IMG/VR virus record: IMGVR_UViG_3300011430_000002
Coordinates: 1 to 61,690 of that record
Length of the DNA: 61,690 nucleotides
Strand: one strand, 5' to 3'
From: a virus
Lineage: Duplodnaviria > Caudoviricetes
Shown: positions 2,249 through 61,690 of the stretch, one piece after another
Layout: each line of letters opens with the position of its first letter
Position numbering within the stretch: position 1 is the stretch's first letter
The notes under the pieces: generated by a model
Databases searched by the model: none
What the model saw: only the letters and a program-made list of their open reading frames with translations
What the model was told of the DNA's origin: nothing
Made by a program: the position numbers and the translations under genes

Positions 2249-2443
2249 TTACTCCTTGTTATCGTCCAGTTGGTAGAGAATCTCGGCAACCTGCTCATCA
2301 GTGAGCGTAGGCGCCTCGGTAAAACAGGTGGCGTCACGCACATAGTGCAGCCAGATACCGTGGGCAATGAGCATGCCCAGCACCATGCTGAGCACCAACA
2401 GAAGCCCGTCCAGTGACTTGCGGTAGGTCTCGTCATAGTTCAT
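2249..2443 (-). CDS. Small membrane protein
   Basis: Hydrophobic LLLVLSMVLGMLIAHGIWL segment; ATGA overlap with upstream gene. Confidence 0.6.
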   Translation of the reverse strand: MNYDETYRKSLDGLLLVLSMVLGMLIAHGIWLHYVRDATCFTEAPTLTDEQVAEILYQLDDNKE

Positions 2444-31572: not shown

Positions 31573-34500
31573 GTGGCCGACCCACTTTCCAACTATGGCT
31601 CGTATGCACTGCCCGATTTTTCGGACCTGTTGTTCAGTGCGGCCGAGGACACGGGCTTGGATACGGACCTGCTGGCCTCGGTCATGGAAGCCGAAAGCTC
31701 GTTCAATCCCCGAGCTGTTTCCAGTGCGGGTGCCCGTGGCCTCATGCAACTCATGCCGGATACGGCTGGCCAGCCGGGTTTCGGTGTGGAAAAGTTCGAC
31801 CCCGACTTGCCGCTGGATGACCCAACGGAAAATGTTCGCGTTGGTTCTCAGTACCTGAAGGGTCTGCTCAATGCGTTCAACGGTGACCTTGACGCCGCGT
31901 TGGTAGCCTACAACTGGGGTCCGGGTAAAGCCCAGAAGTGGGTGGCCAACGGCTCTGATTTTTCCAAGCTCCCCGCTGCAACGCGCAAGTACGTGAACGA
32001 CATCAAGGGCAAGGTCGCGGCGCGGAAGCAGGCGGCCGGTACCACCCCCGCCGGTGCTTCCACCTACCAGCCCTTGGACCCGTGGGCGGATGTTTCTGCA
32101 ACGGGTGCCGTGGATACGGCGCCCGTGTCAGGGTCAGTCGCCGTGGACCAGCGTAGGGCTGACATTGCTGAGCGGCGTGCGGCCTTCAACGAGCGTTTGC
32201 AGCGGGACCCGGAAGCGGCCCGGCTGAATCTGCCCACGGAAGAAGGCGACGAAGAGGAACCCATTGGCGCCGGCCAGTGGCTCAAGGACCAAGGCGAGTG
32301 GGCGGCCAAGGCGTTGTACTCCAGCGTGGTGGACCTCGGGTCTTTGCTGGCTGACCTCGCTGACTTCGGGATGGGACCCGACAGCGGCCTTACCGACCGG
32401 GTGTCAGCGAAGCTGGAGAACCACGCCAACCGGGTTCGCCAGTCCCTGCCCGATTACATCCGCAAGGACTTGGCCAACGAACTCATCACCACGGATGCAA
32501 ACGGCGAGCTGGACTTCCACATGCCGAATTTGCGGCAGGTGGCCAACCTCGTGTTTGAGTCCGCCGCTCCGTCCGGGGCAATTGTTGGTGGTGGCAAGGC
32601 GCTGCTCAAGGGCGCGATGACCATCAACAAGCTGAAGAAGGTCATCAAGGCGTCACCCGGCGTGTCCAACGCCCTTGCCTTGGGCACCGCCAACAGCGCC
32701 TATGTCACGGCCGACACCTACACCACGGTGTACGACGACGTGAAGGAACAGGCCCAGCGCGAGGGCAAGTCGCTCAAGCAAGCCAGCGACGAAGCGGCGC
32801 GTGCGGCGTCATTGGCGGCCGGAATTATTGCCCCCTTGTCGTTCGCCACCGGCGCGGCTGGCGAGGGGTTGGCAGCGACCGGGGCCACCGTCTACCGTAG
32901 GCTGGCCAAGGGCTTGGCCTATGGCTCCATCACTGAAGCGCCCGAGGAATCCGGCCAGTACGTGGCCGAGGAACTGGGACGCGGCAAGTCGCTGGCGGAA
33001 ATCGACAAGGGCAAAGCCTTGGAAGCGGGTCTGCTTGGTGCCCTTGGCGCCGGCCCGACTGAAGGCGTGCTGGCTGCGCTGTCTGGCGACACGGGTGCGC
33101 CGGCTCCGGTGGATGATGTTCCACGTGAAACACCATCCGGCCGCATGGAACAGTTGGAACTGTTCCCGAATCTCCCTATCGACCAGTTGCCAACGCTGCC
33201 CGGTGAGCCGCCCGCTGGCCCGCCCCCCGGCGCACCGCCCTTCAATCTGGAAGGTCCCAGCACCATGGAGCAGCTGGAGCTGCCCCTGATGCCGCTGGAC
33301 CTGCAGGGTCCGCAGGGTCCGCAGGGTCCGCAAGGTCCGCCGGAACAACTGGAGCTGCCCTTCCCGACCCCGCCGAATCCAGCCATCGCCGCCGGCGTTG
33401 CCGACATGGAACAGGCGTTGGATGCGGACCCCAACTTGCCCAACGCAGCGGACGCGCTGAACGCGCCGTCCCCGGAACAGTTGGGTATGTTCGCTCGTGC
33501 CCGGGCGAAGTTGGATATAGAGCGGCGGGACGATGAGGATGAAGTAGGCGCCACGCCAGAATTTCTGGAGTTGGGTGAGCAGGACGAGGACCAGTTGTGG
33601 GAAGACCAGCAGGCGCTGATGAAGAACAGCGCCTTTGAGGCGGGCCTGTCCATCGTGCCCAAGGAAACGCTGGCTTCGCTTCCCAACGTGTCGGTACGGG
33701 ACGCGGAGGAAATCGACCGTAGGTTGCGGCCGACCATGCCCGACCCCGAGTTGCGCTCGTTGGTGGTTGAGCAGCAGCTGGAGGTGCTCTCGGAATATCG
33801 CGGCGAGTTCCCCAACGCGACCCTTGACGAAGCGTTGGGAGCGCCCCGCGCCACTGGCTCCTTGTCGGAAACGGAGGTTGAGCCTGAGTTTGAAATTCTG
33901 ACCGACCAGTTCGGTGAGCAGGAAGAACCCCCGCAGCCCCTTGAAGTGGGGGAACTGGCCCCAGTTGTTGACCTTGTGCAAGCTCGGGCACGGGCGCAGG
34001 CGGGGGAATCGCGTAGTGAGGAAGTTGGCTCTACACCCAGCCCGGATACGGGCACGCCTACTGAAAAAGTCCATGACGAGCAGCAGGCAAGAGAAGACTA
34101 CATGCGGGTTCGGGCGCGTTTGAATCCTGATTCCCTGCATGTCCTTGATAACCTGACTGCGAACGAAGTTCTGGCTATGGTGCAGAGGGAATGGGCTACG
34201 CAGGGTCAGTCTGGTAATCCGCGTAATCCCGCTGCTGTCTATCGGGCTGTCGCCGCACGGTTAAACGCTGCCGCTGCACGGGTAAACAAGGCCGCCACGG
34301 CGAAGCCGGCCGAGAAGCCGGCGAAATGGGACCCGCTCACGGATGACGGGTTCGCGCAGGAGATTATCGACGACGAGGGCGGGGCGGGGATGCGCCTGCT
34401 CAACGCTGGTTACACGGAAGAGCAAGCCGACGAGGTAATCACCAAGGTGATGTCGCGCTTTGTCGGTCGTAGGCTGCAGGAAGCCCGTGAGGATGGTACC

Positions 34501-37500
34501 CGGTCACGGATGCGCAACCTGCGCCAGCCGGATGAAGGCCAGCAACGGCTGCAAGTGACCCGCGAGCAGCCGGCCCGCAACGACTTCGAAGCGCGGTTGG
34601 AACAGTTCGCGGATGAGACAGGTACGCCGGCTGACCCAGCGGCAGTTGCCGAGGCGGTGCAGGAACCCGACGGCCCCAAGGTGCAAAGGGGCGACGTGCT
34701 GGACTTGGTGCACGGCACCGCCGAGGACTTCAACCTGCACCAGTTCCCCGCTGGCAACCGGGGGTCAGGGTTGTGGTTCACTGCCAACGAGACTTCAGGG
34801 ACCCGCTATGCTCAGCAGGGCGCCGGCCCCCGCCCGCGTCGCATCGTCGCCCGGGTCGTGCCCAAAAACCCGCTGACCCTTGCGTGGCAGGACGAGTGGT
34901 TTGGCAATATGGCCGAGTACGAGCGGGTGGTGTGGGAGGCTCGTGAGGCGGGGTATGACCTGATTGCCTTTGTCGGCGTGCAGGAAAGTTTCGGCCCCGA
35001 TGAGGGTGGTGCTCCCGGCCGTAGGTCCACTGAATCCCCGAGGCAGGGCATCCCGGGGGTGAACAACTATTACGTAGTGCTGGACCGTACCATCCTCTCG
35101 CACCGCCCCGGTGCCAACACGTTGGCATTGGCGCCAGAGCCAGAAACTGCCCCGGATGCGGGACCCGCGCCGGCACAGGCTGAGCTGGATTTGCAGGGTG
35201 GTGCGGGTGCTGCGCCTACCGCACGTACGGCACCGCCCATGCGCACACGCGGGCAGGCCGCCGCCGAAGCTGCCGCCCCACCTGCCCCGGCTCCCGCTCC
35301 GGCGCCAGAGCCTGCTCCCACAGCCCCCGTCACGCCCCCGGAGGACCTCAAGGGGCAGCTGCAGGCGGCCCGGGATAGGTACGCCGCTCGTCGGGCGCAG
35401 GTTGCCGCTGCAGCCGCTGCCAATGCGCCCGCCCCTGTCCCCGTTGGCACCAGTACGCCAGCCAGACCCGCCCGTGCGCACGTCTACTACCCGCGTAGGC
35501 GCCTGCAGCGGGCGATGAACGCGAGGTTCTCGGATAATAGGCAGGACCGGGCGTTCCGCGCCGGTATCACGCCGGAAGAGTTGGAGCGTAGGTATCGTGC
35601 GGTGGCTCGCGACGTGATGGCAGCGCCGCGTTTCAACACGCTCACCGAGACGCAGCAGATTCGCGAAATCATCGACCAGACGGTGCGTACCTTTGACAGT
35701 GGCGCCACGACCCGAGCGGCTCCCGCGCCGGCGCCTACACCGGCACCCACTTCCGTGCCCGCCACGCCCGCGTCTACCGGCTCCGCGCCGGAACAGCAGT
35801 TCACGCAAACTGTGCACAGCACGATTCGCGATTTTACGTTGGGGCCGTCTTATGCGTCGGACTTTGTTTCCGGCTTGGTGGCAGCGGGGCGTACGCTGGA
35901 GGAAGCTGCAGCGGAACTGGGTTTGCCACCCCCCACAGGTACTGACCCTAATGATTTTTGGGGCGGTACGCTAGGCCCAGTAAACGTCACCCGTGTGGCT
36001 GCTGACCAGACAACCACGGCACCGGGCGTTGCGGGGCGGGTGAACCAGACTTCCTACTACATCATCACGTTCTCCAACGGGGCCAAGGTAGCCCGCATCG
36101 GTGGTACCGGTAGCATGAATCAGGCGCTGCCGCGTAACCAAGGACTGGGTAAGCAGCAATACGCAAACTTGCTCACGCACCTATTTGAAAATGAAGGCGT
36201 GAGCATCCTGCTGTCGGATTCCACCAACCTTCCGGGGTCGGCACAGTTGTACGCGGCTTTGAAAGTGGCCGGGTGGGATGTGGTCGCCAACCCATCCAGC
36301 TATGAAGTTCAGCCCGGCCACCCTACCACCACGGTTTACCCGCGCTTGGGTAACTGGAACTTCGCCGTGGTCAGCGGGCCACCCGTGCAGCCCCAGCTGC
36401 TCACCTCGCGAGCCTATGGGGCTACCCGTGGCTCGCCGCTGGCTGTGGTGCGCGGGACGGCCGCTGTACCCACGTGGCCGGGCAAGACTCCTGAAGCGGC
36501 AGAAACCGCTGACACCGGGCCGCCCACGGACCCGACGCAGCTGGAGCTGTTTCCCGGTAGCACGCCACCGCCGGCGCATGCAGTGGCGGCGCCCGAGGCT
36601 ACAGGTGCCCAGAGGACTGACCCGACGCAACGGTCATTGTTTCCCCTAGATACCCCGCAGCCGGTGACGACCGAGGAGATGGATGAGGCGCAGAAGTCTG
36701 ACGCCACCGCTGCCGACGCGACGTTAAGGGGCGCCCCCGCTCCCGCCCAGACGGTAACGAATACTTCACCCGATGCGGTGGACCCTGACTCGCAGGAGAA
36801 ACTGGCCGAGGCGGAAGATAATCTCACCGGTGCCAACGATGGCGGTGAGGGTGGTGATGGCGGGGATGGTGGTGGCCGTGGCCCGGATGACGCCAGCGAG
36901 TCCAGCGACATGCCCGGTGACCGCGAGGTCTCTGAGTACCAGACCAATCAGGCCCTCAATGATGTCATCGACGCCCACTCAGGTCGGTGGTCAGATGTCT
37001 GGCACTACTGGTTTGCCGGCTCCACCAAGGCGCGTGGCTACCATCGCGGCCAGCGGGCTACCCCCGAACAATCCACGGCGCGTGGCGACGTGCTTGCACG
37101 TAGAGCCTTCCGTGAAGAACTGACGGCGTGGAAGAATCGCCGGCGCCTTGCGGAGAAGAACGCCCGGGCGCAGGGGCAGCAAGACTTCCAGTTCACTGAA
37201 CCCCGGCCCTTACTGCCCAGCCAGCGCCGCGAAGCCAACGACGCCGGTGAGTTCAACTGGGATGAGTTCCGCACCTTGGTCAAGCGTGCACTGGGGCGCA
37301 CCAAGGTCCGGTGGATGGAGCGTTTGGTGGACCAGCACTACTCCATCAAGCTGATTCAGGAAGTGCTGGCCGACGAGAACGGCTTCGTGAATTCACCGGT
37401 GGACCTGTACGAGTCACTCACTCGCATCGGTTCCAAGATTGACGTGCGGGTGAAGAAGTTCCAAGGCAAACAACAACGTGCCATTCAGGACGTTGCCAAC

Positions 37501-40275
37501 ACGATGGGAGCGACCTTTCAGGAAGTAAACGACTTCGCCGCCGCCCTGCACTCACTGCAGCGCAACGGCTACATGTTCCGCCGCAACTTGGAACAGGGGC
37601 TGGTGCCGCACGCCTATGACCCGGACCCGGACAACGACGTGGTGGGATATTCCGGCATGTCCAACAAGCAGGCCCACGACCTGCTGACCAAGATGGAAGA
37701 GCAGTACGGCCGGGAGAATCTGGCCGCTCTTGAAGATGCCATCTTCGACGCTGCCCAGTTCGTTCGCGCCGAGTTGGTAGCCGGCGGCCTCATTGGCGAG
37801 ACGCAGCAAGGCAACTGGCACCCGCACCCCAACGGCGACACGTACATCCACGACCGCTACAAGGAGTTGCGGGATTCGCAGGGCTACAAGGCGGCGATGG
37901 ACCCAACCAACTATGACATGGCGCGGATTCCGGCCAAGGATGTACCGGGCGTTGACTACACCGAGGACGAGGCCAAGAACGCCACGTTGATGGACACGCT
38001 GCACAACATCACCTATGTGCCGTTGTCCGACATTCGCACCCCCGGCGTGGTTGAGACCATCCGCCAGCAGCTGATGGCCAAGGCTGGCGCCAGCTTCTAC
38101 TCCGAGTACGACGTGTGGGGCGACGACATTGGCAAGGCGTATGGCCGGCAGACCTCTGGTCCCGCCTTGTCGGCAGTGACGCACCTGCTGCAGCACGGCC
38201 AGCAGGCCATCATCCGTGGCGTGCACAACACCGAGCAGGGCGCTCGCATCCGTGCCTTGGTCGCTGAGCTGGACGACCCGTACTTCGCTGTCACCTTGCC
38301 GACAATGAAGGAGGGCTACTACAACATCCCGGGGAACATCAAACGGCAGCTGAACTTGCACTTCACCAACCGTGGCCTGCCACCGCCGGCGCTGCCCACC
38401 ATGGACATCGACCTGCTGACCTTCCGTCACAAGCAGGGCGACAACTCGACACCCACCGTCATTCTCGACTTGGGCATGGCCAACGCGCTGACCAACAGCT
38501 TCTCCGGTGCCAACGTGAAGCGAGTGTTCAACGCCTTTGGCAACTCGTCGTCATGGGTGCGCAAGTCCATGACTGCGTGGTCGCCGCCGTTCTGGGCGAC
38601 CAACTATGTCCGCGAGGTGTGGAACGCAAAGATTCAGGCGCGGGGCATCAAAGGGCTGACCGATGAACAGCGTGCGGCGGTTGCTGCCAAGGCGGGTTTC
38701 GGCGAATCCTTCAAGTGGGTGAAGACCATCTTCCAGCAGATGAAGGACCCGAACTTCGACCCCAGTACATTAACGGACCCCGAGGAACGCACTCGTGCCG
38801 AGGTGTTCAAGAAGATGCACGAGGCCGGCATGACTTCGGAGTTCTTTCACATCAAGGACATCACCGAGCTGGAGCGTGACCTGACCCGCATTGAGCGGGA
38901 GCTGAACCGGCCGGGCAAGAACACCATGGCCAAGACCCGCGAGCTGTTCCGCTCGCTGGCGCAGAACCTTGAGTTGATTGCCAACGTGTCGGAAAACGCG
39001 GTGCGCATGTCGGTGGCTGCCGAGGTGTTGGCCCAGACCGGCAACGTGGAGTTCGCTGCCAGTGTGGGCAAGGACTTGTCCGTCAACTTCCAGCGGTACG
39101 GTACGTGGGGGTCGGCCATCAACAGCCTGTTCTTCTTCTACAACCCCACCATTCAGGGGCTGTACCGTGCCAAGCGTGCACTGCATCACAAGGATGTAAG
39201 ACGCATCGTGGTTGGCGCCACGGTGTTTGGCGCCATGATGCCCATCATCAACCGGATGATTGCCGGCGAGGACGATGACGGCCGGAACTACTACGAGGCG
39301 GTGCCGCACTGGAAGCGCAACACCAACTTCATCCTGATGATTCCCGGCGGCGAGGGGCGGCACATCTCCATCCCCCTGCCGTACGTGTGGAACCTGCCGT
39401 ACGCCCTGTCCGAGAAGCTGGTGGATTCGCTCACTGCTTCTGACCAGCTCAGTGGCGCCGAGAAGGCAAGGAGTATTGCCGGCCAGATGGTTGGGCTGAC
39501 CATAGAGAACATCTCGCCGTTGTCGTTCTCTTCCAAGCACCCGGTGCGGTCGGTCGTTCCCACCATGTTGCAACCGGGGTACGACGTGCTGACCAACCAG
39601 ACGTGGTTTGGTGGCTACATCAACCCGGCCAAGAATCAGTTCGCCGCAGCGCCAGTGACCGATGCCTTCAACGTCAAGGACCCGGACACCAAGCAGAACT
39701 GGCAGGCGCTGTCGCAAGCCATGGCCATTGGCGGCAGCAAGTACGAGGAAGGGCTGATTGACGTGTCACCGGGCACACTGGAATACCTGTTCGGGTATTA
39801 CACCGGTGGCGTCGGTACCTTCATGACGCGAACCTTCGACACCGTTGCCGCCGTGGCGACACCGGGCGACGGGAAAACTTTCGAGGATGTGGTGGCCAAC
39901 GCGCCCATCCTGCAGCGGGTCTATGGGCTGGGCAAGTTTGAAGAGGCTGACCGCGACCGCTACTACCAGCTGCGCACCGACATGGAGTCCGTGCTGAACG
40001 TGGAGAAGGATTTACGAGCAGCCCGTGACATCGCTGGCATGAAGATTTTCAGGGCCAACGAAGGGGACCTGTATTCAACCGGCGTCATCAGCCGGTACAA
40101 GAACACGGAGCGCATGGTGGACAACCTGCGCCGTGCCCGCAACAAGTTGGTGAAGCAGGCCAACAAGTCGGAAGCGACCAAGCGCCGCATTGAGCAGCTT
40201 GATGACCGGATGACCAAGTTGATGACGCGGTTCAACCGGTACTACTATGAACGCATCACCAAGGAGAGTTTCTAA
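31573..40275 (+). CDS. 2900-aa polyvalent internal virion protein: SLT lytic transglycosylase, ART-like, GNAT-like and LPD38-like domains
   Basis: ESSFNPRAVS.AGARGLMQLMP and AYNWG (SLT); HGT...GLWFT...KNPL...GYD (ART-like); RNQGLGK...LSDS (GNAT-like); YEAVPHWKR...ISIPLP (LPD38-like). Confidence 0.85.
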   Translation: MADPLSNYGSYALPDFSDLLFSAAEDTGLDTDLLASVMEAESSFNPRAVSSAGARGLMQLMPDTAGQPGFGVEKFDPDLPLDDPTENVRVGSQYLKGLLNAFNGDLDAALVAYNWGPGKAQKWVANGSDFSKLPAATRKYVNDIKGKVAARKQAAGTTPAGASTYQPLDPWADVSATGAVDTAPVSGSVAVDQRRADIAERRAAFNERLQRDPEAARLNLPTEEGDEEEPIGAGQWLKDQGEWAAKALYSSVVDLGSLLADLADFGMGPDSGLTDRVSAKLENHANRVRQSLPDYIRKDLANELITTDANGELDFHMPNLRQVANLVFESAAPSGAIVGGGKALLKGAMTINKLKKVIKASPGVSNALALGTANSAYVTADTYTTVYDDVKEQAQREGKSLKQASDEAARAASLAAGIIAPLSFATGAAGEGLAATGATVYRRLAKGLAYGSITEAPEESGQYVAEELGRGKSLAEIDKGKALEAGLLGALGAGPTEGVLAALSGDTGAPAPVDDVPRETPSGRMEQLELFPNLPIDQLPTLPGEPPAGPPPGAPPFNLEGPSTMEQLELPLMPLDLQGPQGPQGPQGPPEQLELPFPTPPNPAIAAGVADMEQALDADPNLPNAADALNAPSPEQLGMFARARAKLDIERRDDEDEVGATPEFLELGEQDEDQLWEDQQALMKNSAFEAGLSIVPKETLASLPNVSVRDAEEIDRRLRPTMPDPELRSLVVEQQLEVLSEYRGEFPNATLDEALGAPRATGSLSETEVEPEFEILTDQFGEQEEPPQPLEVGELAPVVDLVQARARAQAGESRSEEVGSTPSPDTGTPTEKVHDEQQAREDYMRVRARLNPDSLHVLDNLTANEVLAMVQREWATQGQSGNPRNPAAVYRAVAARLNAAAARVNKAATAKPAEKPAKWDPLTDDGFAQEIIDDEGGAGMRLLNAGYTEEQADEVITKVMSRFVGRRLQEAREDGTRSRMRNLRQPDEGQQRLQVTREQPARNDFEARLEQFADETGTPADPAAVAEAVQEPDGPKVQRGDVLDLVHGTAEDFNLHQFPAGNRGSGLWFTANETSGTRYAQQGAGPRPRRIVARVVPKNPLTLAWQDEWFGNMAEYERVVWEAREAGYDLIAFVGVQESFGPDEGGAPGRRSTESPRQGIPGVNNYYVVLDRTILSHRPGANTLALAPEPETAPDAGPAPAQAELDLQGGAGAAPTARTAPPMRTRGQAAAEAAAPPAPAPAPAPEPAPTAPVTPPEDLKGQLQAARDRYAARRAQVAAAAAANAPAPVPVGTSTPARPARAHVYYPRRRLQRAMNARFSDNRQDRAFRAGITPEELERRYRAVARDVMAAPRFNTLTETQQIREIIDQTVRTFDSGATTRAAPAPAPTPAPTSVPATPASTGSAPEQQFTQTVHSTIRDFTLGPSYASDFVSGLVAAGRTLEEAAAELGLPPPTGTDPNDFWGGTLGPVNVTRVAADQTTTAPGVAGRVNQTSYYIITFSNGAKVARIGGTGSMNQALPRNQGLGKQQYANLLTHLFENEGVSILLSDSTNLPGSAQLYAALKVAGWDVVANPSSYEVQPGHPTTTVYPRLGNWNFAVVSGPPVQPQLLTSRAYGATRGSPLAVVRGTAAVPTWPGKTPEAAETADTGPPTDPTQLELFPGSTPPPAHAVAAPEATGAQRTDPTQRSLFPLDTPQPVTTEEMDEAQKSDATAADATLRGAPAPAQTVTNTSPDAVDPDSQEKLAEAEDNLTGANDGGEGGDGGDGGGRGPDDASESSDMPGDREVSEYQTNQALNDVIDAHSGRWSDVWHYWFAGSTKARGYHRGQRATPEQSTARGDVLARRAFREELTAWKNRRRLAEKNARAQGQQDFQFTEPRPLLPSQRREANDAGEFNWDEFRTLVKRALGRTKVRWMERLVDQHYSIKLIQEVLADENGFVNSPVDLYESLTRIGSKIDVRVKKFQGKQQRAIQDVANTMGATFQEVNDFAAALHSLQRNGYMFRRNLEQGLVPHAYDPDPDNDVVGYSGMSNKQAHDLLTKMEEQYGRENLAALEDAIFDAAQFVRAELVAGGLIGETQQGNWHPHPNGDTYIHDRYKELRDSQGYKAAMDPTNYDMARIPAKDVPGVDYTEDEAKNATLMDTLHNITYVPLSDIRTPGVVETIRQQLMAKAGASFYSEYDVWGDDIGKAYGRQTSGPALSAVTHLLQHGQQAIIRGVHNTEQGARIRALVAELDDPYFAVTLPTMKEGYYNIPGNIKRQLNLHFTNRGLPPPALPTMDIDLLTFRHKQGDNSTPTVILDLGMANALTNSFSGANVKRVFNAFGNSSSWVRKSMTAWSPPFWATNYVREVWNAKIQARGIKGLTDEQRAAVAAKAGFGESFKWVKTIFQQMKDPNFDPSTLTDPEERTRAEVFKKMHEAGMTSEFFHIKDITELERDLTRIERELNRPGKNTMAKTRELFRSLAQNLELIANVSENAVRMSVAAEVLAQTGNVEFAASVGKDLSVNFQRYGTWGSAINSLFFFYNPTIQGLYRAKRALHHKDVRRIVVGATVFGAMMPIINRMIAGEDDDGRNYYEAVPHWKRNTNFILMIPGGEGRHISIPLPYVWNLPYALSEKLVDSLTASDQLSGAEKARSIAGQMVGLTIENISPLSFSSKHPVRSVVPTMLQPGYDVLTNQTWFGGYINPAKNQFAAAPVTDAFNVKDPDTKQNWQALSQAMAIGGSKYEEGLIDVSPGTLEYLFGYYTGGVGTFMTRTFDTVAAVATPGDGKTFEDVVANAPILQRVYGLGKFEEADRDRYYQLRTDMESVLNVEKDLRAARDIAGMKIFRANEGDLYSTGVISRYKNTERMVDNLRRARNKLVKQANKSEATKRRIEQLDDRMTKLMTRFNRYYYERITKESF

Positions 40276-54720: not shown

Positions 54721-55126
54721 TCAAGTGCCCCTGCCGTACCGTGAGAATTCTTCGCAGCTCAAAGTGAGCGGCGGGTAGCACTGACTGCACCATGACCCGT
54801 GCCGCAGCGGTGGCTACCAACGAGTGGGTACCGCACTTGAGCAGGTCGGCGAAGGTTGCTCCCCGTTCGGGTGCAATGCGTACCAACGGGTCAATCTGCG
54901 TGACCACACTGGCCACTGATGCCTCACGGTCCAGCCGGGTAGCGGTGGCCATCGGTGGGCCATAGGTGTCCATGTCCCTTGGCCTCACGGTGGCAAGCAG
55001 CACGAAGCTGAAGTCACCATCCGGGTCCACGTTGTGCTGGTCATTCTGCTGCTCCAAGGCGATGAAGTATTCCTTCAGCATGGCGTGGAGCTTCAGCGAC
55101 AGGGCGTCGATGTCAGGCTTTGGCAT
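54713..55126 (-). CDS. Hypothetical protein
   Basis: AAAGGA RBS; in operon. Confidence 0.6.
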   Translation of the reverse strand: MPKPDIDALSLKLHAMLKEYFIALEQQNDQHNVDPDGDFSFVLLATVRPRDMDTYGPPMATATRLDREASVASVVTQIDPLVRIAPERGATFADLLKCGTHSLVATAAARVMVQSVLPAAHFELRRILTVRQGHLND

Positions 55127-55565
55127 TTCCTTTCTCCTGCTTCAGCCACGGGTGGGTACCGGCAGCTGGCAACTTGTGGGGAGCGAACTCGCTCGGTGCA
55201 TAGGGTACATCGGCGAACGACTCACCCCTTAGCAACCGGGCGATAACCAGTGGCTGGTATCCCAACTGCTTGGCAATGGACAAGGGGGTCTTGCCGGCCA
55301 TGAACAGGTCACGTGCCCGGTTGATGTCGTACTCGGACACCCTACGATTCTTGGTCGGCACGATGCCGGCGCCGGGTGCCTGCCCTTGAATGTGCAGCAG
55401 CAGGTTCCTGATACCAGTCAATGACAAACGCTCTGGTCCTGTCAGTGCGACAGCCCGGTCTTTCAACACGCCGTTAAGGTGCTTGGTCTGCAGGTCCAGC
55501 AGCGTCATGTCAACGTCTTCGATGGTGATGCTCTTCGGTGCTTGGGTCGGTGAATTAACAGCCAT
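55113..55565 (-). CDS. HTH-containing protein
   Basis: ARDLFMAGKTPLSIAKQLGY...IARLLRG. Confidence 0.65.
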   Translation of the reverse strand: MAVNSPTQAPKSITIEDVDMTLLDLQTKHLNGVLKDRAVALTGPERLSLTGIRNLLLHIQGQAPGAGIVPTKNRRVSEYDINRARDLFMAGKTPLSIAKQLGYQPLVIARLLRGESFADVPYAPSEFAPHKLPAAGTHPWLKQEKGNAKA

Positions 55566-55567
55566 GG

Positions 55568-56575
55568 TCAAGTGCTCCTTTCTCTCGGTTGGTTGATGTC
55601 TACTTTCAGTTGGTGAATCTGCATTAGCAGGGTCGCCGTTGCCACCCATAACCTGTCTACCAACAAGGCGCTAAGGTTGGCCATCGTTGTCAACGCGAGG
55701 GGTACAATGCGTGCCTGCTCATGTACTAGGTCAAGGCGCTGGACTTCCAGCTCCTTGAGTTTGGTGCTCAGTTCTCTCGGTGTGAACGTGCTCAGTGCGA
55801 TGAACTCAGGGCGCAATGAGTCTTCACGTGTAAACATGTCGGGTCGGTATGGACCCCGTTGCGTACTGAAGCCCATCGAACGCTTGGCCTGCAGTACCTT
55901 CTTCACATCGGCAATCTGTTGGGTCACCTGCTCGGTTCTCGCTGCGTAGCCAGCGAGTTTGCTCGTCAGCATTTCACGCATCCGTCCCGGGTTCGGGTTG
56001 ATGCCGCTGTTGTACAAGAAACTCAGGTCCAGCTCGTCGCTGGTGAACACCAGCTGCGTACCTACCACCTTGTGGGTAAGCGGTGTCCCCATGTTCTCGC
56101 ACTGGGCAGTCAGGGCGATGGGATTGTAGTTACCCTCGCTCTTTACTTGCCCCATGATGGTGAAGTCGAACCGCCACAGGTATCCCCGCTGGTCCTTGAG
56201 TGTCCAGACGGGGTTGCGGTCAGAGTAAGTACCCTCGTAGATAACACTGGCCCCGGCCGGGTTGTGCCCTGCCACCTTGTGGGTGTCGAAGCTGCTGCTT
56301 TTAACACCGGGCGTCCAGCCTTTGGTTGTACCCGTCCCCGCCCACCGTTTGTGCAGTATGTTCAGGTCAGTGGGTACCCAGAAAGGTACCGCACCTGTCG
56401 CCATCTGCAACAGGGCCTGCTCGGATGCCACCTCTATGTGCTTACCCTTTGGCCCCGGCTGAACCATTACCTCCAAGTAGCTGGCCAGTCCTTGCCTTAC
56501 CAACGGGTCGGCATAGAAGTCACGCGTGGTACTGACGAACAGCACCTTGTTGGTCTGGATGTTGGCCCACGTCAT
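55568..56575 (-). CDS. Hypothetical protein
   Basis: 335 aa; ATGA overlap with upstream gene. Confidence 0.65.
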   Translation of the reverse strand: MTWANIQTNKVLFVSTTRDFYADPLVRQGLASYLEVMVQPGPKGKHIEVASEQALLQMATGAVPFWVPTDLNILHKRWAGTGTTKGWTPGVKSSSFDTHKVAGHNPAGASVIYEGTYSDRNPVWTLKDQRGYLWRFDFTIMGQVKSEGNYNPIALTAQCENMGTPLTHKVVGTQLVFTSDELDLSFLYNSGINPNPGRMREMLTSKLAGYAARTEQVTQQIADVKKVLQAKRSMGFSTQRGPYRPDMFTREDSLRPEFIALSTFTPRELSTKLKELEVQRLDLVHEQARIVPLALTTMANLSALLVDRLWVATATLLMQIHQLKVDINQPRERST

Positions 56576-56856
56576 GGGGTGCCACCAACGCGTACCTGAC
56601 ATGGCGTACCTCCCATCGTGGCGGCAGCGGCGAACCAGAACCGGTTCTTCTCTATCTGGTATTCATTCAGCAGGGCCGGCGCCAAGCCCTCCCACTCTTC
56701 CTTCGTGTACGTGCGGGTAATCCGCAAGTGCGGGATGCTGACCTCAAACGAGGGGCCATTGATGTCGGGCCACTGCCCTTCAGCACGGCATAGCTCATGC
56801 CCGAAGATGGTTACAGGCGGCAGCTCTTTGATGTTCTTGATGGTCGGTTCGGTCAT
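56572..56856 (-). CDS. Hypothetical protein
   Basis: GAGG RBS; 94 aa. Confidence 0.6.
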   Translation of the reverse strand: MTEPTIKNIKELPPVTIFGHELCRAEGQWPDINGPSFEVSIPHLRITRTYTKEEWEGLAPALLNEYQIEKNRFWFAAAATMGGTPCQVRVGGTP

Positions 56857-56904
56857 GGTCGGTACCTCGGTGTGCTAGTAACATATCAAGTATCAATGAT
56901 ATGG

Positions 56905-57288
56905 TCAAGCGGGTGCGGGTAGAGTACCTCGCACACGTGCCCACCACTCACGCTCGTACTCGGCGGATGCAGAGTGCAGCGTGGTACCGGTGATGGGTAC
57001 CCCGTTCTCTATCAACGCGTTGTAAAGGGCAGCGGTGGCTACCGCTGCGTCAGCAGCGAACCATTCCAGTCGCTTGTGCAGCCCGGCCTTGATGAGCGTG
57101 CGGTGCACGCTCGCCTCGACATACGGCAGCACCGTCTTCGGCGTCACCTGCAAATCCAGATGCACCTCCCAGTCGTACGGTGAGCCGGTGTCCCAGTCGC
57201 CGATGCGCTTGTGCACTGACCTCGTGGTCATGCCAATCTTGATGAAGCCATGCCCGTTGGGCTGGCCCACGATGTAGATGTTAGACAT
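56905..57288 (-). CDS. GIY-YIG / T5orf172-type domain protein
   Basis: IYIV...IKIGMT..V.KRI....TGSP...E..VH......R.EWF. Confidence 0.85.
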   Translation of the reverse strand: MSNIYIVGQPNGHGFIKIGMTTRSVHKRIGDWDTGSPYDWEVHLDLQVTPKTVLPYVEASVHRTLIKAGLHKRLEWFAADAAVATAALYNALIENGVPITGTTLHSASAEYEREWWARVRGTLPAPA

Positions 57289-57601
57289 CGACCTGCTCCC
57301 CTCTCGCTGTCTTCACGGTGGTAATCAGCCGGCGCATGTTGCGTGTCGTCTTGATGGCCTCACGGTACTGCGCATAGTGCATCCCTCCGCAGAACAGGGC
57401 GATGACGGACAGGGTGAGCGTCCACGAGGAACGGTTGCCCGTCGCAGCGATGACCAGATACAGGCCCATTGCTGTCCACATGAGGGTAAGCAGAACGTGC
57501 TTGCCAACCAGTCGTAACGACTGGTCACGCACATCAACTGCACGTTGTATCAGTTGGTCGGTTGCTTCGATGTTCATTTCAACTTTCGTTGGGTCGCTCA
57601 T
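57281..57601 (-). CDS. Two-TM membrane protein
   Basis: Likely start MSDPTK with AAGGA RBS; two hydrophobic helices. Confidence 0.65.
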   Translation of the reverse strand: MSDPTKVEMNIEATDQLIQRAVDVRDQSLRLVGKHVLLTLMWTAMGLYLVIAATGNRSSWTLTLSVIALFCGGMHYAQYREAIKTTRNMRRLITTVKTARGEQVDV

Positions 57602-57644
57602 GGTCTCGGTGTTCCTTGTCGTGTGGTTGTAAGGGAATCCGCTG

Positions 57645-57776
57645 TCAATCCCAGCGGTAGAAGTAAAGCCAGCCTCGGTCTTTCTGTTGCCTTCTCCAGC
57701 AGCGGGGGTTGGCGAATCCACCACTGGCATACCAGTTGCGCTTGCTCATGCGCTCACTGCCTACATTCGTTCGCAT
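57645..57776 (-). CDS. 43-aa basic, aromatic-rich protein, absent from the ORF track
   Basis: AAAGGAG RBS; MRTNVGSERMSKRNWYASGGFANPRCWRRQQKDRGWLYFYRWD. Confidence 0.6.
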   Translation of the reverse strand: MRTNVGSERMSKRNWYASGGFANPRCWRRQQKDRGWLYFYRWD

Positions 57777-57974
57777 GACCCTGCTCCTTTGCTTCACGTT
57801 GTAAGGGGGTAAGGCATCCTGCCCTCGCCGGCTATCAACGAGGCGTCAACCTCAACCGGGTCATGGGGCAGGATTATTTGTGGCTGCATCCCCACGGATT
57901 TATGACTCCACTCCGGTGGGTCCGTGGTTTGCGTTTAACTGGCGGCCACACGCCAGCAGGAAATGTCCCACCGG
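57774..57974 (-). ncRNA. Candidate structured RNA with pseudoknots
   Basis: Five or more complementary segments in crossed order; see findings. Confidence 0.5.
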
Positions 57975-57977
57975 GCG

Positions 57978-59603
57978 TTAAGTCAATTTCTCCATCGGCA
58001 ATTCAGCCACCACACCGAAGCCCATCTGGTTGCACTTCACGGTGAAGTGCTCGGTGCATGACCAACCCAAGTCACCCAGCGCCCATATCAGGGGCATCCG
58101 GCGCAGCTTGGTGTTCCAGAAAGCGAAGCACTCGTCTACTTGCATGTCATCCACGCCACCATCGGTGAGGTAGGTCATGCAGGCAGCATCGGGGTAATCA
58201 TCGGCGACACGTTGGAAGGCAGGCATGAACTCGGTACCACCACCAACACGCCGAATCCTACGGTCTAACTTGCCAAGGTCGGACTTGGTGTACTCGAACA
58301 CACCCTCTTGCGGGATGCCATCGCTGCACCAGATAACCACGGCACGTTGGAACATGGCCAACCTTAATGCGTTCTCCATTTCAAAGAAGAAGTAATCCAC
58401 CATCGGGCCACTCGTGCTTCCCGACGAGTCGATAATGAACACTACCGTTCCCAACTCCTTGCCAACGGGGCCGGGGTACATTGCACCTTGCGACGTGCGG
58501 CGCTTGGTGCTCGGACGTGAGTACGTGTAGGACCCTGCCCTCATGTTGGCATTGGCATAGCGATTCAACTGCCGGTCCCAGCGGTGCCGTGCCTTGTACA
58601 CCATGGCGCCCAGCTCCCCGGTGAACGGGTCGCTACCTTCCACGCCTTCGCCACGGCTACGCATGGGTGCGGCCATCCGTTCGGCGTTGGCAGCGGCGGC
58701 AATGTTGTTCAGCTCCATGCTGTGCAGCTGCTCATCGGTAAGCGGGGTGTCGATGTCGCCCTTGTATTCATCGGGCAACACGATGTCGGTACCAGCGCCG
58801 GCTTGGGAATTCTCGGGTTGGGTCAGGTCACGCTCGCCTTCACCCTTGCCCTTGCCCTTGCCCTCGCCCTTGTCAGCGTCACCAGCGTCATCGGCCGGGT
58901 CATCCCCATCCTCGCCCTCATCGGCGCCGTCACCCTCGCCCTCGCCCTTGGCCTTCTGTTCTTCATCCTTGTCCTCATCATCGGCGTCGTTCGCTTCCGG
59001 CTTGTCGCCAGCGTCTGCCTTGTCTGCCTTCGGCTTGTCAGACTTGCCCCCACTGCCACCCTCACACGGGGGCTGGGTACCAGCAGGCGGCTGCGAGGTC
59101 GGCTTCTGCAGTTCCTTCTTTACCAACTCGTCGGCAATCGCTTCGGTGGTGTACTTGTCCGGGGAATACCGGGCGTCGTACATCCAGTCGTCGCGAATGT
59201 TCAGGCGCCACTCATGCTTGAGCATGTAGTTGATGAAGTAGTCCTGCGCTTGGTTGAAGAAGTACAGCAGCTGCCTACGAGTGAGCCTCGTGTGCTGGTA
59301 CCTGCGCACCCACCGCTCATAGCGGGGGAAGAAGTTCAGGAACTTGTGATACACCTCGTGCACCAGCGCCGACACGCAGTCATCAACGCTGGACTCGGCG
59401 AAGTACGTGGGTGCGTACCAGATTTTCCTCACGCAATCGGTGGCTGCGGTTTTCACCTTCTCGTCAGGGATAATCTCCATCTCCATCATGTACATGGCGA
59501 CGGTGCAGTAGCGGGGGTCCCGCAACATGCGGTGCACGGCACGCTGGAAGTTGTTCACTTCCACCGGTACAGCAGCGGCATAAATGTTGGTGAACATGTG
59601 CAT
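57978..59603 (-). CDS. Metallopeptidase (HExxH) plus vWA domain protein (DUF2201-like)
   Basis: TAATD, HEVYH, D..IN; acidic linker; IDSSGST, GGGTEF, YLTDG MIDAS residues. Confidence 0.88.
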   Translation of the reverse strand: MHMFTNIYAAAVPVEVNNFQRAVHRMLRDPRYCTVAMYMMEMEIIPDEKVKTAATDCVRKIWYAPTYFAESSVDDCVSALVHEVYHKFLNFFPRYERWVRRYQHTRLTRRQLLYFFNQAQDYFINYMLKHEWRLNIRDDWMYDARYSPDKYTTEAIADELVKKELQKPTSQPPAGTQPPCEGGSGGKSDKPKADKADAGDKPEANDADDEDKDEEQKAKGEGEGDGADEGEDGDDPADDAGDADKGEGKGKGKGEGERDLTQPENSQAGAGTDIVLPDEYKGDIDTPLTDEQLHSMELNNIAAAANAERMAAPMRSRGEGVEGSDPFTGELGAMVYKARHRWDRQLNRYANANMRAGSYTYSRPSTKRRTSQGAMYPGPVGKELGTVVFIIDSSGSTSGPMVDYFFFEMENALRLAMFQRAVVIWCSDGIPQEGVFEYTKSDLGKLDRRIRRVGGGTEFMPAFQRVADDYPDAACMTYLTDGGVDDMQVDECFAFWNTKLRRMPLIWALGDLGWSCTEHFTVKCNQMGFGVVAELPMEKLT

Positions 59604-59669
59604 TTCCTCGGTCAGTTGCGCCCGCCCCATGGCGGGCGCTTGGTCGGTGGTGGTCAGGTGGAACGTGCT

Positions 59670-60791
59670 TTACATGAACGCTTCCAACTCGTTGACAGCT
59701 TCGTTCACGTGCTTGTGCACCTCTTCAACCACGCCCTCGCCTTGGTTGGCAAGGTTGGTCAGGTTCCTCGCCATCGTGGCGCGAAGGTCGGGGTTCTTTA
59801 CCAACGTGTCGGCGTCGATGTCACCGATGGTGGCACGCACCTCGGTGGCAAAGCGCACCAACGTGTTATCCCCTGCCGCCTCGGCGAGAGCGAGGGTCAG
59901 GTCGCACTGACCCCGTAGGTTGGGCAGTAACGACTGCGCAATCGGCACAGCACGAGCGGTCTTGCGTTCTTCCTTGGTGTTGTTCATTTCCCGCACCGTG
60001 TCGGCGTCATTGCCAAGCACAGCGGCGGCGAACTTCACGGAGTTCACGAACACCTCTGATGTACGTGACCATGCGTTGGTCATGCGGTCAGCGATGCGGT
60101 TCATCGTCGCCTTGCGTACCTGCATGGCAAGGTCACCTCGGGCAACTCTATCCATGTCGATACGCATGTCGAAGGCGGGGAAGTCCAGCACCTCAAGCTC
60201 GATGCTCCACTTGCTCAGCCAGCCCTCGGCGTCGGGGAACGAGTCAAGGTCGAACATGTCGCCAAGGTAGGACTGCGCTTGGTTCATCACCCCGTCCCAC
60301 TCGGCACGCACCCGCTGCTTGCCAGCCTCTTGCGTACCACGGATGGCATCGACCTGCATTTCCAGCTCGGCCAGTCTGCTACGAGGCACCACGGTCCACG
60401 TGTCATCCCACTTGCCCAGCCCGAAGTTCACCCCGGTTTCATTGGCCGGCGTACCATCCTCACGAGCGCCTTGCCCCACCGTGAGCAACTCACGCACGGC
60501 GTGATACGGTGCGGTCACAGGTTGCACGGCCTGTCCTTGGAAGAGCCGATTGGATACGCTTACCCAATGCTGGTCTGCCTTCTTGTTGGCAGCGAGTTCA
60601 TTCCTTTCCGCCTTGTTGGTAGCGGTGGTCGGAGCACGAGTCGCTCGGATGCGTGCCAGCACACATCTATCGGCAAGGGCCTGCACCCTCGTGCTGCCAC
60701 CCATCATGTTGCGGATGTCTTGGTCGGTGATTTCCCCTGCTTTGAGCAGGTCCAGAAAGTCTTGCTTGGTCACTACAGTTTTGTTGGTCAT
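59670..60791 (-). CDS. DUF3150-like helical protein
   Basis: LGDMFD...FP motif; position between AAA+ and vWA genes. Confidence 0.5.
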   Translation of the reverse strand: MTNKTVVTKQDFLDLLKAGEITDQDIRNMMGGSTRVQALADRCVLARIRATRAPTTATNKAERNELAANKKADQHWVSVSNRLFQGQAVQPVTAPYHAVRELLTVGQGAREDGTPANETGVNFGLGKWDDTWTVVPRSRLAELEMQVDAIRGTQEAGKQRVRAEWDGVMNQAQSYLGDMFDLDSFPDAEGWLSKWSIELEVLDFPAFDMRIDMDRVARGDLAMQVRKATMNRIADRMTNAWSRTSEVFVNSVKFAAAVLGNDADTVREMNNTKEERKTARAVPIAQSLLPNLRGQCDLTLALAEAAGDNTLVRFATEVRATIGDIDADTLVKNPDLRATMARNLTNLANQGEGVVEEVHKHVNEAVNELEAFM

Positions 60792-60818
60792 GGTCTCAAT
60801 CCTCGTTGGTCGGGTGGG

Positions 60819-61690
60819 TTAGAACGAGCGGCGCAGTGAAGAGGTGCGCAGCAGGTAGTCTTGCGTCAGCTTGTCAGCTGCCAGTTCAGGGTGCCGCTTG
60901 AGTACCGGGTCCACGATGGCACCCTGCACCTCAACGGGTAGCCTCGTCACGTACTGCATGACGGGGGTGAAGTTGTCGGTGTTGGTCTTGTTGCCTACGT
61001 TGGAGCACAGCATCATCATCGACGCCGGTGAATCAGGTACCGGTGCGGTGTTGGGTGACGACACGATGGTAGCGAAAGGAATCAGCTTGTCTCGTAGGTG
61101 AAACAGCGCAGCGAACCGTACCGCTGCGGCGTCGTGCATCCACGAGGCCAGCACCACCAGCCTCTGCTCATGGGTAGGTTCACGCCCTTGCAAGGCGCAG
61201 TACCGTTCCAGTGCATCCATGTTCTCGCTTGCTTCCATGATGGAGCGAGGCGTGGTGTTGCGCATCCGTGAAGGGTTGTAATCCTTCAGCAAATTATCCC
61301 CTTCCATCTTGACGCCAGTGATGAGGATGGGGTTCGCCTTCTTCTCCAGTGCGTGCACCACGAATTCGCCCGAGGTCGGGCCGGTCCACCGATACTGCGA
61401 GGTACGGTTGCCCAGCACCGGGTTCTCCACGCACTCCAGCGCACCATCATCGGTACCGTTGGCCAATGCGAGTCGGAACACGTGCTCGGGTCCAACCCAG
61501 TCACCGCAGGTGGGCCGGTCACCTTCCATCATCTGCATCGCCATCTTGTTGGCGCCCTTGAGCTTGTACTCGTCCAATATCAGCACGTCCCCATAGGACA
61601 GGCTGCGCAGGATGGGGTGCAGGTGGATGGTCATGCCATCATCCTTGGCCCACGGAATTCCCGGGAAGTCGTACTCCTCGTGTCGGCCAA
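60819..61690 (-). CDS. MoxR-type AAA+ ATPase, C-terminal part (gene starts at 349)
   Basis: VLILDE Walker B, LAN sensor, LGNR arginine finger, TPRS. Confidence 0.85.
   Translation of the reverse strand, partial: GRHEEYDFPGIPWAKDDGMTIHLHPILRSLSYGDVLILDEYKLKGANKMAMQMMEGDRPTCGDWVGPEHVFRLALANGTDDGALECVENPVLGNRTSQYRWTGPTSGEFVVHALEKKANPILITGVKMEGDNLLKDYNPSRMRNTTPRSIMEASENMDALERYCALQGREPTHEQRLVVLASWMHDAAAVRFAALFHLRDKLIPFATIVSSPNTAPVPDSPASMMMLCSNVGNKTNTDNFTPVMQYVTRLPVEVQGAIVDPVLKRHPELAADKLTQDYLLRTSSLRRSF
61568..61690. repeat. 123-bp terminal direct repeat, copy 2
   Basis: Identical to 1-123. Confidence 0.95.

Follow-up and report, generated by a model that had tools for sequence, protein, structure and literature searches.

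Does the long untranslated gap behind an N4 gp25-like gene of an uncultured phage hold a structured RNA, and what might such an RNA do there? The stretch of DNA analysed here in full, referred to below as the window, is the virus record IMGVR_UViG_3300011430_000002, a complete genome of 61,690 base pairs (bp) with direct terminal repeats. On its minus strand, between a gene of 550 amino acids (aa) and one of 106 aa, lies an untranslated gap of 377 nucleotides (nt), and within this gap we describe an RNA element predicted to fold into two interlocked pseudoknots. The structure is very probably real and under selection. With a probability of roughly one in three, we propose that the knot acts in cis as an intercistronic translational gate or relay that would be opened by the ribosome terminating on the upstream gene. 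Conserved pseudoknotted elements in messenger RNA (mRNA) are a known kind, and this fold matches none of the 4227 Rfam families. Being small (~100 nt) and supported by covariation, the RNA is a concrete candidate for self-cleavage, ligand binding or ribosome-coupled switching.

Architecture of the element and its conservation in a second phage

The core of the element, read on the minus strand, is an H-type pseudoknot made of two crossing helices, A and B (Table 1). Its loop 1 holds a hairpin, H, whose own loop is clamped by the 3' tail of the core (the loop-tail helix, L-L'), and a second domain, P5, follows further downstream. Because the 5' strand of helix B abuts the 3' strand of helix A, the two helices would form one continuous stack. 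Every pairing listed in a first-pass annotation of this DNA is exact on the minus strand, as read off the sequence and confirmed by script.

Taken by itself, the window sequence is suggestive and not decisive, since loosely defined versions of this architecture also turn up in shuffled sequence and in many other places. A minimal descriptor, with at least 7 bp in helix A, at least 6 in an abutting helix B and at least 6 in the loop-tail helix, matched 25 of 1000 sequences obtained from the window stretch by dinucleotide shuffling and about 40 other sites in 123 kb (both window strands), or ~1 per 3 kb of window. The nested-only minimum free energy (MFE) of the minus strand is likewise ordinary (z -1.16), with 31 of 200 shuffles folding as well. 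These two figures are what speaks for the view that the locus has no functional element, the complementarity having arisen by chance in GC-rich sequence or belonging to a site that acts at the level of DNA. It is conservation, in our judgement, rather than single-sequence statistics that settles the reality of the fold.

A large protein collection contains 24 relatives of the upstream protein, and 13 of these reach E<=5e-85. A 55.7-kb IMG/VR contig, L095, encodes a DUF2201 protein 47% identical to that of the window and shares the gene order around it, namely a 379-aa protein, the DUF2201 protein, a gap, small genes and a T5orf172 protein. In L095 the element again lies directly 3' of the stop codon of the DUF2201 gene. 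It was found at L095:4990-5153 (55.8 bits, E 1.3e-11) by a covariance model built on the window only, which contained the nested helices A, H and P5 and left out the pseudoknot helices B and L-L'; the same model detected no second copy in the window and none in nine other related loci.

In the alignment of the window with L095 all 41 of the 41 pairs are kept, 17 of them changed on both sides, with none changed on one side only and none broken. None of 500 shuffles equalled this result, and sliding the partners by 1-3 columns left 1 such pair each. The alignment was not fitted to helix B or to the loop-tail helix, since both were absent from the covariance model. Compensatory changes nevertheless affect 5 of the 7 pairs of B and 1 of the 6 of the loop-tail helix, which joins UGCGGC to GCCGCA in L095 where the window has UGUGGC with GCCACA. 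Helices A, H and P5 were recovered independently by RNAalifold from the two sequences. P5 has a conserved 5' bulge, CAUG, in both, and in L095 it is capped by a UUCG loop. The double-pseudoknot RNA that the first-pass annotation saw in the transcribed (minus) sense stands, with the fold kept in L095 and without a match in Rfam. The same holds for the annotation's view that G.U pairs favour the transcribed strand: each of the three copies known to us has one G.U pair that would be A.C on the other strand.

Identity between the window and L095 amounts to 26 of 56 paired core columns and 26 of 39 unpaired core columns, to be compared with 73 of 133 third-codon positions of four-fold families at conserved residues of the flanking gene. 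The paired columns are thus no better conserved than these third-codon positions. Helices that drift and yet stay paired, around junctions that remain fixed (CGCAAA, UCAU, GGAUGCA and UUUCCU), form the pattern that one would expect of a functional RNA fold.

RNAalifold also pairs J3 (GCA, GGA) with the conserved tail UGCCUU, extending P5 (window 57885-57891 with 57811-57815, minus strand). J3 and the tail after P5 are invariant between the window and L095, so that they offer no covariation by which to judge this pairing.

A third copy and the occurrence of the element

A third locus, L099, is a metagenome contig of 2.9 kb; the protein it encodes is 36% identical to that of the window, and a gap of 220 nt follows the gene. 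The strands of the element recur there in the order seen in the window, with helix letters that are wholly different (Table 1). The end of linker L3 reads UCAUAAU in L099, where it follows a small linker hairpin, UCAUAAA in the window and UCAUGUA in L095; L095, like L099, carries an additional small hairpin inside this linker. P5, common to the window and L095, is absent from L099. The core is shortest in the window (~96 nt), longer in L095 (103 nt) and longest in L099 (124 nt). The L099 protein matches 131 phage records, all at less than 60% identity, and the 30 matches listed are N4 gp25-like proteins 23.6-25.2% identical to it.

A strict descriptor called for at least 7 bp in A, at least 7 bp in an abutting B, at least 6 bp in the loop-tail helix, a hairpin of at least 5 bp around the loop and UCAU within the last 10 nt of the linker. 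It gave 8 matches in 3.75 Mb of fetched DNA (both strands), 4 of which are the three loci, with the L095 contig counted twice, and 4 of which lie elsewhere. Against this background of ~1 match per Mb, a chance match within the 220 nt after an orthologous gene is unlikely (~2e-4). Chance complementarity or a DNA-level site, as raised above, is already largely refuted and in our view hardly credible. It would have to accommodate 41 pairs in which 17 changes are compensatory and none is disruptive, the detection of L095 at such an E value and the same architecture at the same gene boundary in L099, and crossing helices with kept G.U pairs do not fit double-stranded DNA.

L099 also holds an exact 8-nt repeat, GUGCUCAC (L099:2329-2336 and 2377-2384), the second copy of which spans the GUG of J3 and the first base of L'. 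The repeat could be a switch, because it offers the 5' strand of helix A an alternative 6-bp partner; the window and L095 have none such.

Near-identical strains of the phage were present in all 4 of the 4 groundwater and sediment DNA runs compared. Across window 57560-58140 the strain contigs show 1 single-nucleotide polymorphism (SNP) in 418 nt of non-coding sequence (57937, unpaired) versus 5 SNPs in the last 163 nt of the DUF2201 gene. There are 24 sequencing runs listed for the phage, none of them of RNA.

Searches for further copies yielded little. Comparison of the window region and of the protein with 50,697 phage records by blastn and tblastn gave no match. A 15-mer scan of viral contigs returned 93 stretches, all in unrelated coding genes, and two motif patterns returned 9 and 2 stretches of viral contigs, of which only that in the L095 contig is real. 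In genome contigs a motif pattern occurred in at least 120 stretches, and the covariance model matched 0 of the 80 loci scanned. A script run over 130 loci found only L109. Protein-guided scans with alignment A1 pointed to 1 locus in viral contigs, 9 in metagenome contigs and 0 in genome contigs; the single upstream protein as query found no locus in viral contigs, and the C-terminal alignment A6 returned the same contig again.

The scan against Rfam 15 that the first-pass annotation had called for gave 0 matches at gathering score over the whole window, and no family matched L095 or L099. At E<=10 the only hit on 57400-58200 was porB (15.8 bits), outside the element and on the plus strand, and L099 gave only a 12.8-bit fragment of a long non-coding RNA. 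In L095 the only hit was CRISPR-DR23, a weak match (24.4 bits, E 0.015, against a gathering score of 45) to L095:5019-5052, antisense to the stretch from the hairpin to helix B, with no such match in the window. ARAGORN found 0 genes for transfer RNA or transfer-messenger RNA in the window. No description of such an element was found in the literature searched, a comparison that did not extend to the 26 motifs in the supplements of PMC10085705.

These results bear on whether the element might be a separate gene for a trans-acting small non-coding RNA, for example a decoy against host defence, that keeps its place by synteny. The location at the start of the variable region of small accessory genes would suit such a gene, P5 with its GCCUU tail could end the transcript in the window and L095, and the weak antisense likeness to a CRISPR repeat also counts in its favour. 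That match, however, is below the gathering score, concerns the other strand and is absent from the window; L099 has no P5; and the scan shows neither a promoter-like nor a terminator-like site in the region. Since helix A overlaps the stop codon in L099, the element is moreover tied to the mRNA, and we regard a trans-acting RNA as highly unlikely. An intrinsic terminator was likewise rejected, the scan listing no terminator-like site on the minus strand of 55000-61690; P5 is followed by GCCUUACCCCC.

Table 1. Parts of the RNA element and adjoining features. Positions are those of the window unless preceded by L099; pair changes are relative to L095.
Feature	Position	Strand	Remarks
Upstream gene, 550 aa	57978-59630	-	DUF2201_N and VWA-like DUF2201 domains; N4 gp25-like
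Stop codon UAA of the 550-aa gene	57978-57980	-
Helix A	57974-67 with 57920-13	-	8 bp; checked by script
Helix A, 5' strand CCGGUGGG	57967-57974	-	starts 3 nt past the stop codon; 5/8 pairs changed on both sides
Junction J1 ACAUUUCCU	57958-57966	-	pyrimidine-rich, unpaired; UUUCCU same in L095
Hairpin H	57938-57957	-	stem 57957-51 with 57944-38, 7 bp including one G.U; 4/7 stem pairs compensatory
Loop of hairpin H, UGUGGC	57950-45	-	pairs with L' GCCACA (57884-79), 6 bp
Junction J2 UAAACGCAAA	57928-57937	-	CGCAAA same in L095; holds the element's only strain SNP
Helix B	57927-21 with 57898-92	-	7 bp; crosses A; 5/7 pairs compensatory; absent from covariance model
Helix B, 5' strand CCACGGA	57921-57927	-	0 nt from the 3' strand of A
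Helix A, 3' strand CCCACCGG	57913-57920	-
Linker L3 AGUGGAGUCAUAAA	57899-57912	-	UCAU at 57905-02, present in all three copies
Helix B, 3' strand UCCGUGG	57892-57898	-
Junction J3 GGAUGCA	57885-57891	-	same in L095; holds AUG 57889-87; L099 has GUG at the matching place
L' GCCACA	57879-57884	-	pairs with the entire loop of H (second pseudoknot); 1 compensatory change; 7 different pairs in L099
Second domain P5	57816-57874	-	outer stem 57874-66 with 57824-16, 9 bp; inner stem 57859-56 with 57831-28
Tail GCCUU after P5	57811-57815	-	conserved with L095
Candidate 31-codon leader frame from the J3 AUG	57794-57889	-	stop 3 nt before the next Shine-Dalgarno sequence (weak evidence)
Shine-Dalgarno AAAGGAG and AUG of a doubtful 43-aa frame	57774-57790	-	57790-84 and 57776-74; GGGUCAUG overlaps the AUG
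Helix A in L099	L099:2267-73 with 2331-37		7 bp; includes stop codon UGA (2269-71)
Hairpin in L099	L099:~2284-2304		8-nt loop; seven loop bases pair with 2384-90
Helix B in L099	L099:2324-30 with 2366-72		7 bp including one internal U.G; abuts the 3' strand of A

Position at the stop codon and a candidate translational gate

All three copies adjoin or overlap the stop codon of the upstream gene, with helix A starting 3 nt after it in the window and 4 nt after it in L095 and overlapping it in L099. On the other side of the element the 106-aa protein of the window gave no alignment, or one at E 0.82, with the 127-aa and 150-aa proteins of L095, and the downstream part of L099 differs again. The distance from the element to the next start varies among the copies. 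From the tight spacing to the stop, the unrelated downstream genes and the variable spacing to the next start, we infer that the element belongs to the end of the upstream cistron.

A start codon stands in J3 in each of the three copies (AUG, AUG and GUG) and opens frames of 31, 28 and 33 codons, those of the latter two being L095:5088-5174 and L099:2377-2478. The three frames stop 3 or 1 nt short of the next Shine-Dalgarno sequence or overlap the next AUG, and their codons 7-8 encode Leu-Pro in all three copies, with synonymous codon differences.

The footprint of the ribosome is known and, given its extent, a ribosome terminating on the upstream gene must unwind helix A, because this helix adjoins or contains the stop codon. 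In the gate that we propose, the ribosome finishing the upstream gene would melt helix A and so loosen the whole knot. With no ribosome at the stop codon, the folded knot would hold the J3 start codon between helix B and L-L' and, together with the pyrimidine-rich J1, would limit the access of ribosomes to the variable downstream genes, perhaps by way of the downstream ribosome-binding site. The downstream cassette would thereby have its expression tied to translation of the conserved upstream module. If this is true, the ribosome-melted gate would provide a small, naturally occurring part with which two genes could be coupled in their expression.

Long-range translational coupling through ribosome-driven unfolding is known from the MS2 coat and replicase genes and from rpmI-rplT, where the L20 operator is a pseudoknot. 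As in those systems, an upstream ribosome would open a structure that limits downstream initiation; unlike them, the element lies wholly in the intercistronic gap, and we infer its link to the downstream ribosome-binding site. There is a further likeness to the S4 operator of the Escherichia coli alpha operon (rpsM; Alpha_RBS in Rfam), a nested pseudoknot that encloses a start codon and in which the loop of an upstream hairpin pairs with the first codons after the start. L' covers codons 2-4 of the J3 AUG frame, and the interlocked helices around this start would act on initiation. In contrast to the S4 operator, the element is located behind a stop codon of a phage operon, has no Shine-Dalgarno sequence at the candidate start, does not match the model and involves no ribosomal protein.

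Several observations weigh against the proposed gate. No Shine-Dalgarno sequence precedes the J3 start codon, and the leader frame is weak evidence because in L095 each of the three reading frames comes to its end no more than 22 nt from the next gene. When folding was constrained, the downstream ribosome-binding site did not become consistently more or less accessible in the three copies, and the tight spacing to the stop codon could be mere compaction of the phage genome. The nested-only MFE is lower relative to shuffles on the plus strand (z -2.41) than on the minus strand (z -1.16). The comparison comprises only three independent sequences, to which the strain contigs add just one SNP at an unpaired position. 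The third of these was recognised by eye: a two-sequence covariance model detects nothing in L099, the descriptor was written after the recognition, and its hairpin threshold was lowered from 6 to 5 pairs so that L099 would pass. Finally, no copy follows the same gene in L097 (70-nt gap, protein 42% identical), in L100 (no gap, 38%) or in the three cultured relatives examined (45 nt, an overlap and 94 nt after the gene), and the element is therefore dispensable for the upstream gene.

A place immediately past the stop codon of a conserved gene in 3 of 3 copies would also be that of a passive RNA barrier at the 3' end of the upstream cistron, which would block 3'-to-5' exonucleases or the 5'-to-3' RNase J, or deny Rho a loading site. 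The long untranslated gap in the window and the GC-rich helices agree with this, and a knot with its strands clamped at both ends suits the nuclease-blocking role put forward in the first-pass annotation. For such a purpose, however, a plain hairpin would suffice, and the conserved unpaired bases and the precise double knot, kept across 36% protein identity, suggest a more specific role; the relatives L097 and L100 and the three cultured phages, moreover, manage without the element. A mere barrier thus seems to us improbable.

The knot might instead serve as an aptamer that binds a small molecule or a protein of the phage or the host, so that the element would be a riboswitch or a protein-binding operator controlling the downstream genes. 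Aptamers typically have covarying helices around conserved junction nucleotides, and the next Shine-Dalgarno or start region offers J1 a pairing partner over 5 bp in the window, 6 bp in L095 and 7 bp in L099; folding predicts this pairing in L095 with helix A open and in unconstrained L099. The pairing is short, however, and purine-rich partners are common. Other findings also make this explanation rather unlikely: the element is anchored to the upstream stop codon and not to the downstream ribosome-binding site, the scan shows no terminator-like U tract in the region, the models of known riboswitches give no match, and the genes downstream are unrelated and function-unassigned. A metabolite riboswitch in particular would be recognisable by a recurrent related gene downstream, and the genes there are unrelated in the three copies.

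We also rejected a signal for -1 frameshifting or readthrough at the upstream stop codon. By reading, no X XXY YYZ heptamer precedes the stop in the 3 copies, the stops themselves differ (UAA, UAG and UGA), and the frames that extend past them run for 25, 60 and 3 codons and are unlike one another.

The idea, part of the first-pass annotation, that the second domain presents CAUGACCC so as to cover the AUG of a 43-aa open reading frame (ORF) is not supported. CAUGACCC (57865-58) is the exact complement of GGGUCAUG (57781-74, minus strand), but the arrangement is confined to the window, as L095 offers just the self-complementary CAUG (4 nt) and L099 is without the second domain. The ORF (window 57645-57776, minus strand) has a strong Shine-Dalgarno sequence, and the position of AGCAAAGGAG is conserved with the next gene of L095. 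Its GC content by codon position is atypical, 0.47/0.56/0.67 versus ~0.6/0.43/0.75 in the phage genes. The ORF may be a remnant, in which case ~175 nt more of non-coding sequence would lie ahead of the 106-aa gene.

Comparison with catalytic RNAs and genomic setting

Among self-cleaving RNAs, the ribozymes similar to that of hepatitis delta virus (HDV) have the strand order P1, P2, P3 hairpin, P1', P4, P2'. Like them, the element is a double pseudoknot of ~100 nt in which two helices cross; a hairpin lies between these helices, and the second linker may carry another. Its own order differs, being A, hairpin, B, A', (hairpin), B', L', and its hairpin loop pairs with the 3' tail and not with J1/4. 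An HDV-like ribozyme was accordingly rejected, since the hairpin comes ahead of the 5' strand of helix B, this strand abuts A' with 0 nt between them in 3 of 3 copies and Rfam gives no match.

In pistol ribozymes the pseudoknot partner lies between the 5' strand of P2 and P3, and the cleavage dinucleotide precedes the 3' strand of P2. The first-pass annotation had been loosely reminded of this class, and there are two points of likeness: the whole 6-nt hairpin loop is paired with a downstream strand (6 bp), and an A-rich linker, UUAAAC, follows the hairpin in the window. The partner of the loop, however, lies beyond the 3' strand of helix B and not inside it, and there is an extra enclosing helix, A. 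With L' placed 7-11 nt after the 3' strand of B in 3 of 3 copies and no match to pistol in Rfam, the resemblance does not hold up; the UUAAA linker is absent from L095 and L099.

The P3-P7 core of group I introns offers a further parallel in its strand order (P3, inner domain, P7 abutting P3', P8 hairpin, P7', 3' hairpin). Unlike such introns, the element has neither P1 nor P10, its inner domain is a single hairpin and there is no Intron_gpI match. A group I intron was rejected because no gene is interrupted: the upstream protein has the usual LPMEKL-type C-terminus of its family whether or not the element follows, and the genes downstream show no relationship. A hammerhead ribozyme was rejected as well, CUGAUGA occurring only in the variable linker of L095.

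A self-cleaving ribozyme of a new class would cut the polycistronic early or middle transcript at the border of the conserved module and the variable genes. Many small ribozymes are located between phage genes, and the element likewise sits in a phage and has no consistent gene downstream. Its pseudoknotted fold includes conserved unpaired CGCAAA, UCAU and GGAUGCA, which the window and L095 share exactly and L099 retains in part. Conserved positions combined with pseudoknots or multi-stem junctions are named as expected marks of self-cleaving ribozymes in PMC10085705, and the element bears them; the same source, however, describes ten candidate motifs with such marks that showed no cleavage in vitro, so these marks are weak evidence for a ribozyme. 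HDV-like self-cleaving ribozymes include phage examples (PMC13635239). The strand order of the element is nevertheless unlike that of the HDV-like and pistol classes, no Rfam ribozyme model matches, and a cut at the 5' edge, in the manner of HDV-like or hatchet ribozymes, would remove the stop codon of L099, which lies inside helix A. On balance we consider it improbable that the RNA cleaves the transcript in this way.

A broader proposition is that the element is the founding member of a new catalytic or sensing class of RNA, with a fold that resembles none so far described, which would either cleave itself or read upstream translation and relay ribosomes, by way of the clamped start codon and a leader of ~30 codons, to the variable early genes. 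We put this forward only tentatively, as possible though on the whole unlikely. If true, the relay would be operated by ribosomes and would span a long intercistronic gap; a ribozyme or a riboswitch would constitute a new class.

The plus strand of the genome carries the structural genes, which encode a terminase, a head-tail adaptor, a major head protein, a tail fibre and a 2900-aa polyvalent virion protein. Every gene between 41 kb and the genome end is on the minus strand, where genes of replication and early type, including DNA polymerase, helicase and exonuclease, occupy the region from ~41 kb to the right end. The 550-aa protein is the counterpart of gp25 of cultured N4-like phages, and a gp24-like AAA ATPase precedes it both there and here. 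The next solid gene downstream of the element, that of 106 aa, starts at 57601 (minus strand). In these uncultured groundwater and sediment phages the element stands where a conserved N4 gp24/gp25-like module gives way to a variable block of small genes. That block, located after the RNA element, is bracketed by the gene for a 127-aa T5orf172/MUG113 (GIY-YIG-like) protein common to both phages (window 56905-57288, minus strand; L095:6022-6405).

The C-terminal third of the 2900-aa virion protein (window 31573-40275, plus strand) matches PHROGs of 2800-3900-aa function-unassigned proteins; the protein carries an SLT transglycosylase and an LPD38 domain, N-terminal and C-terminal respectively.

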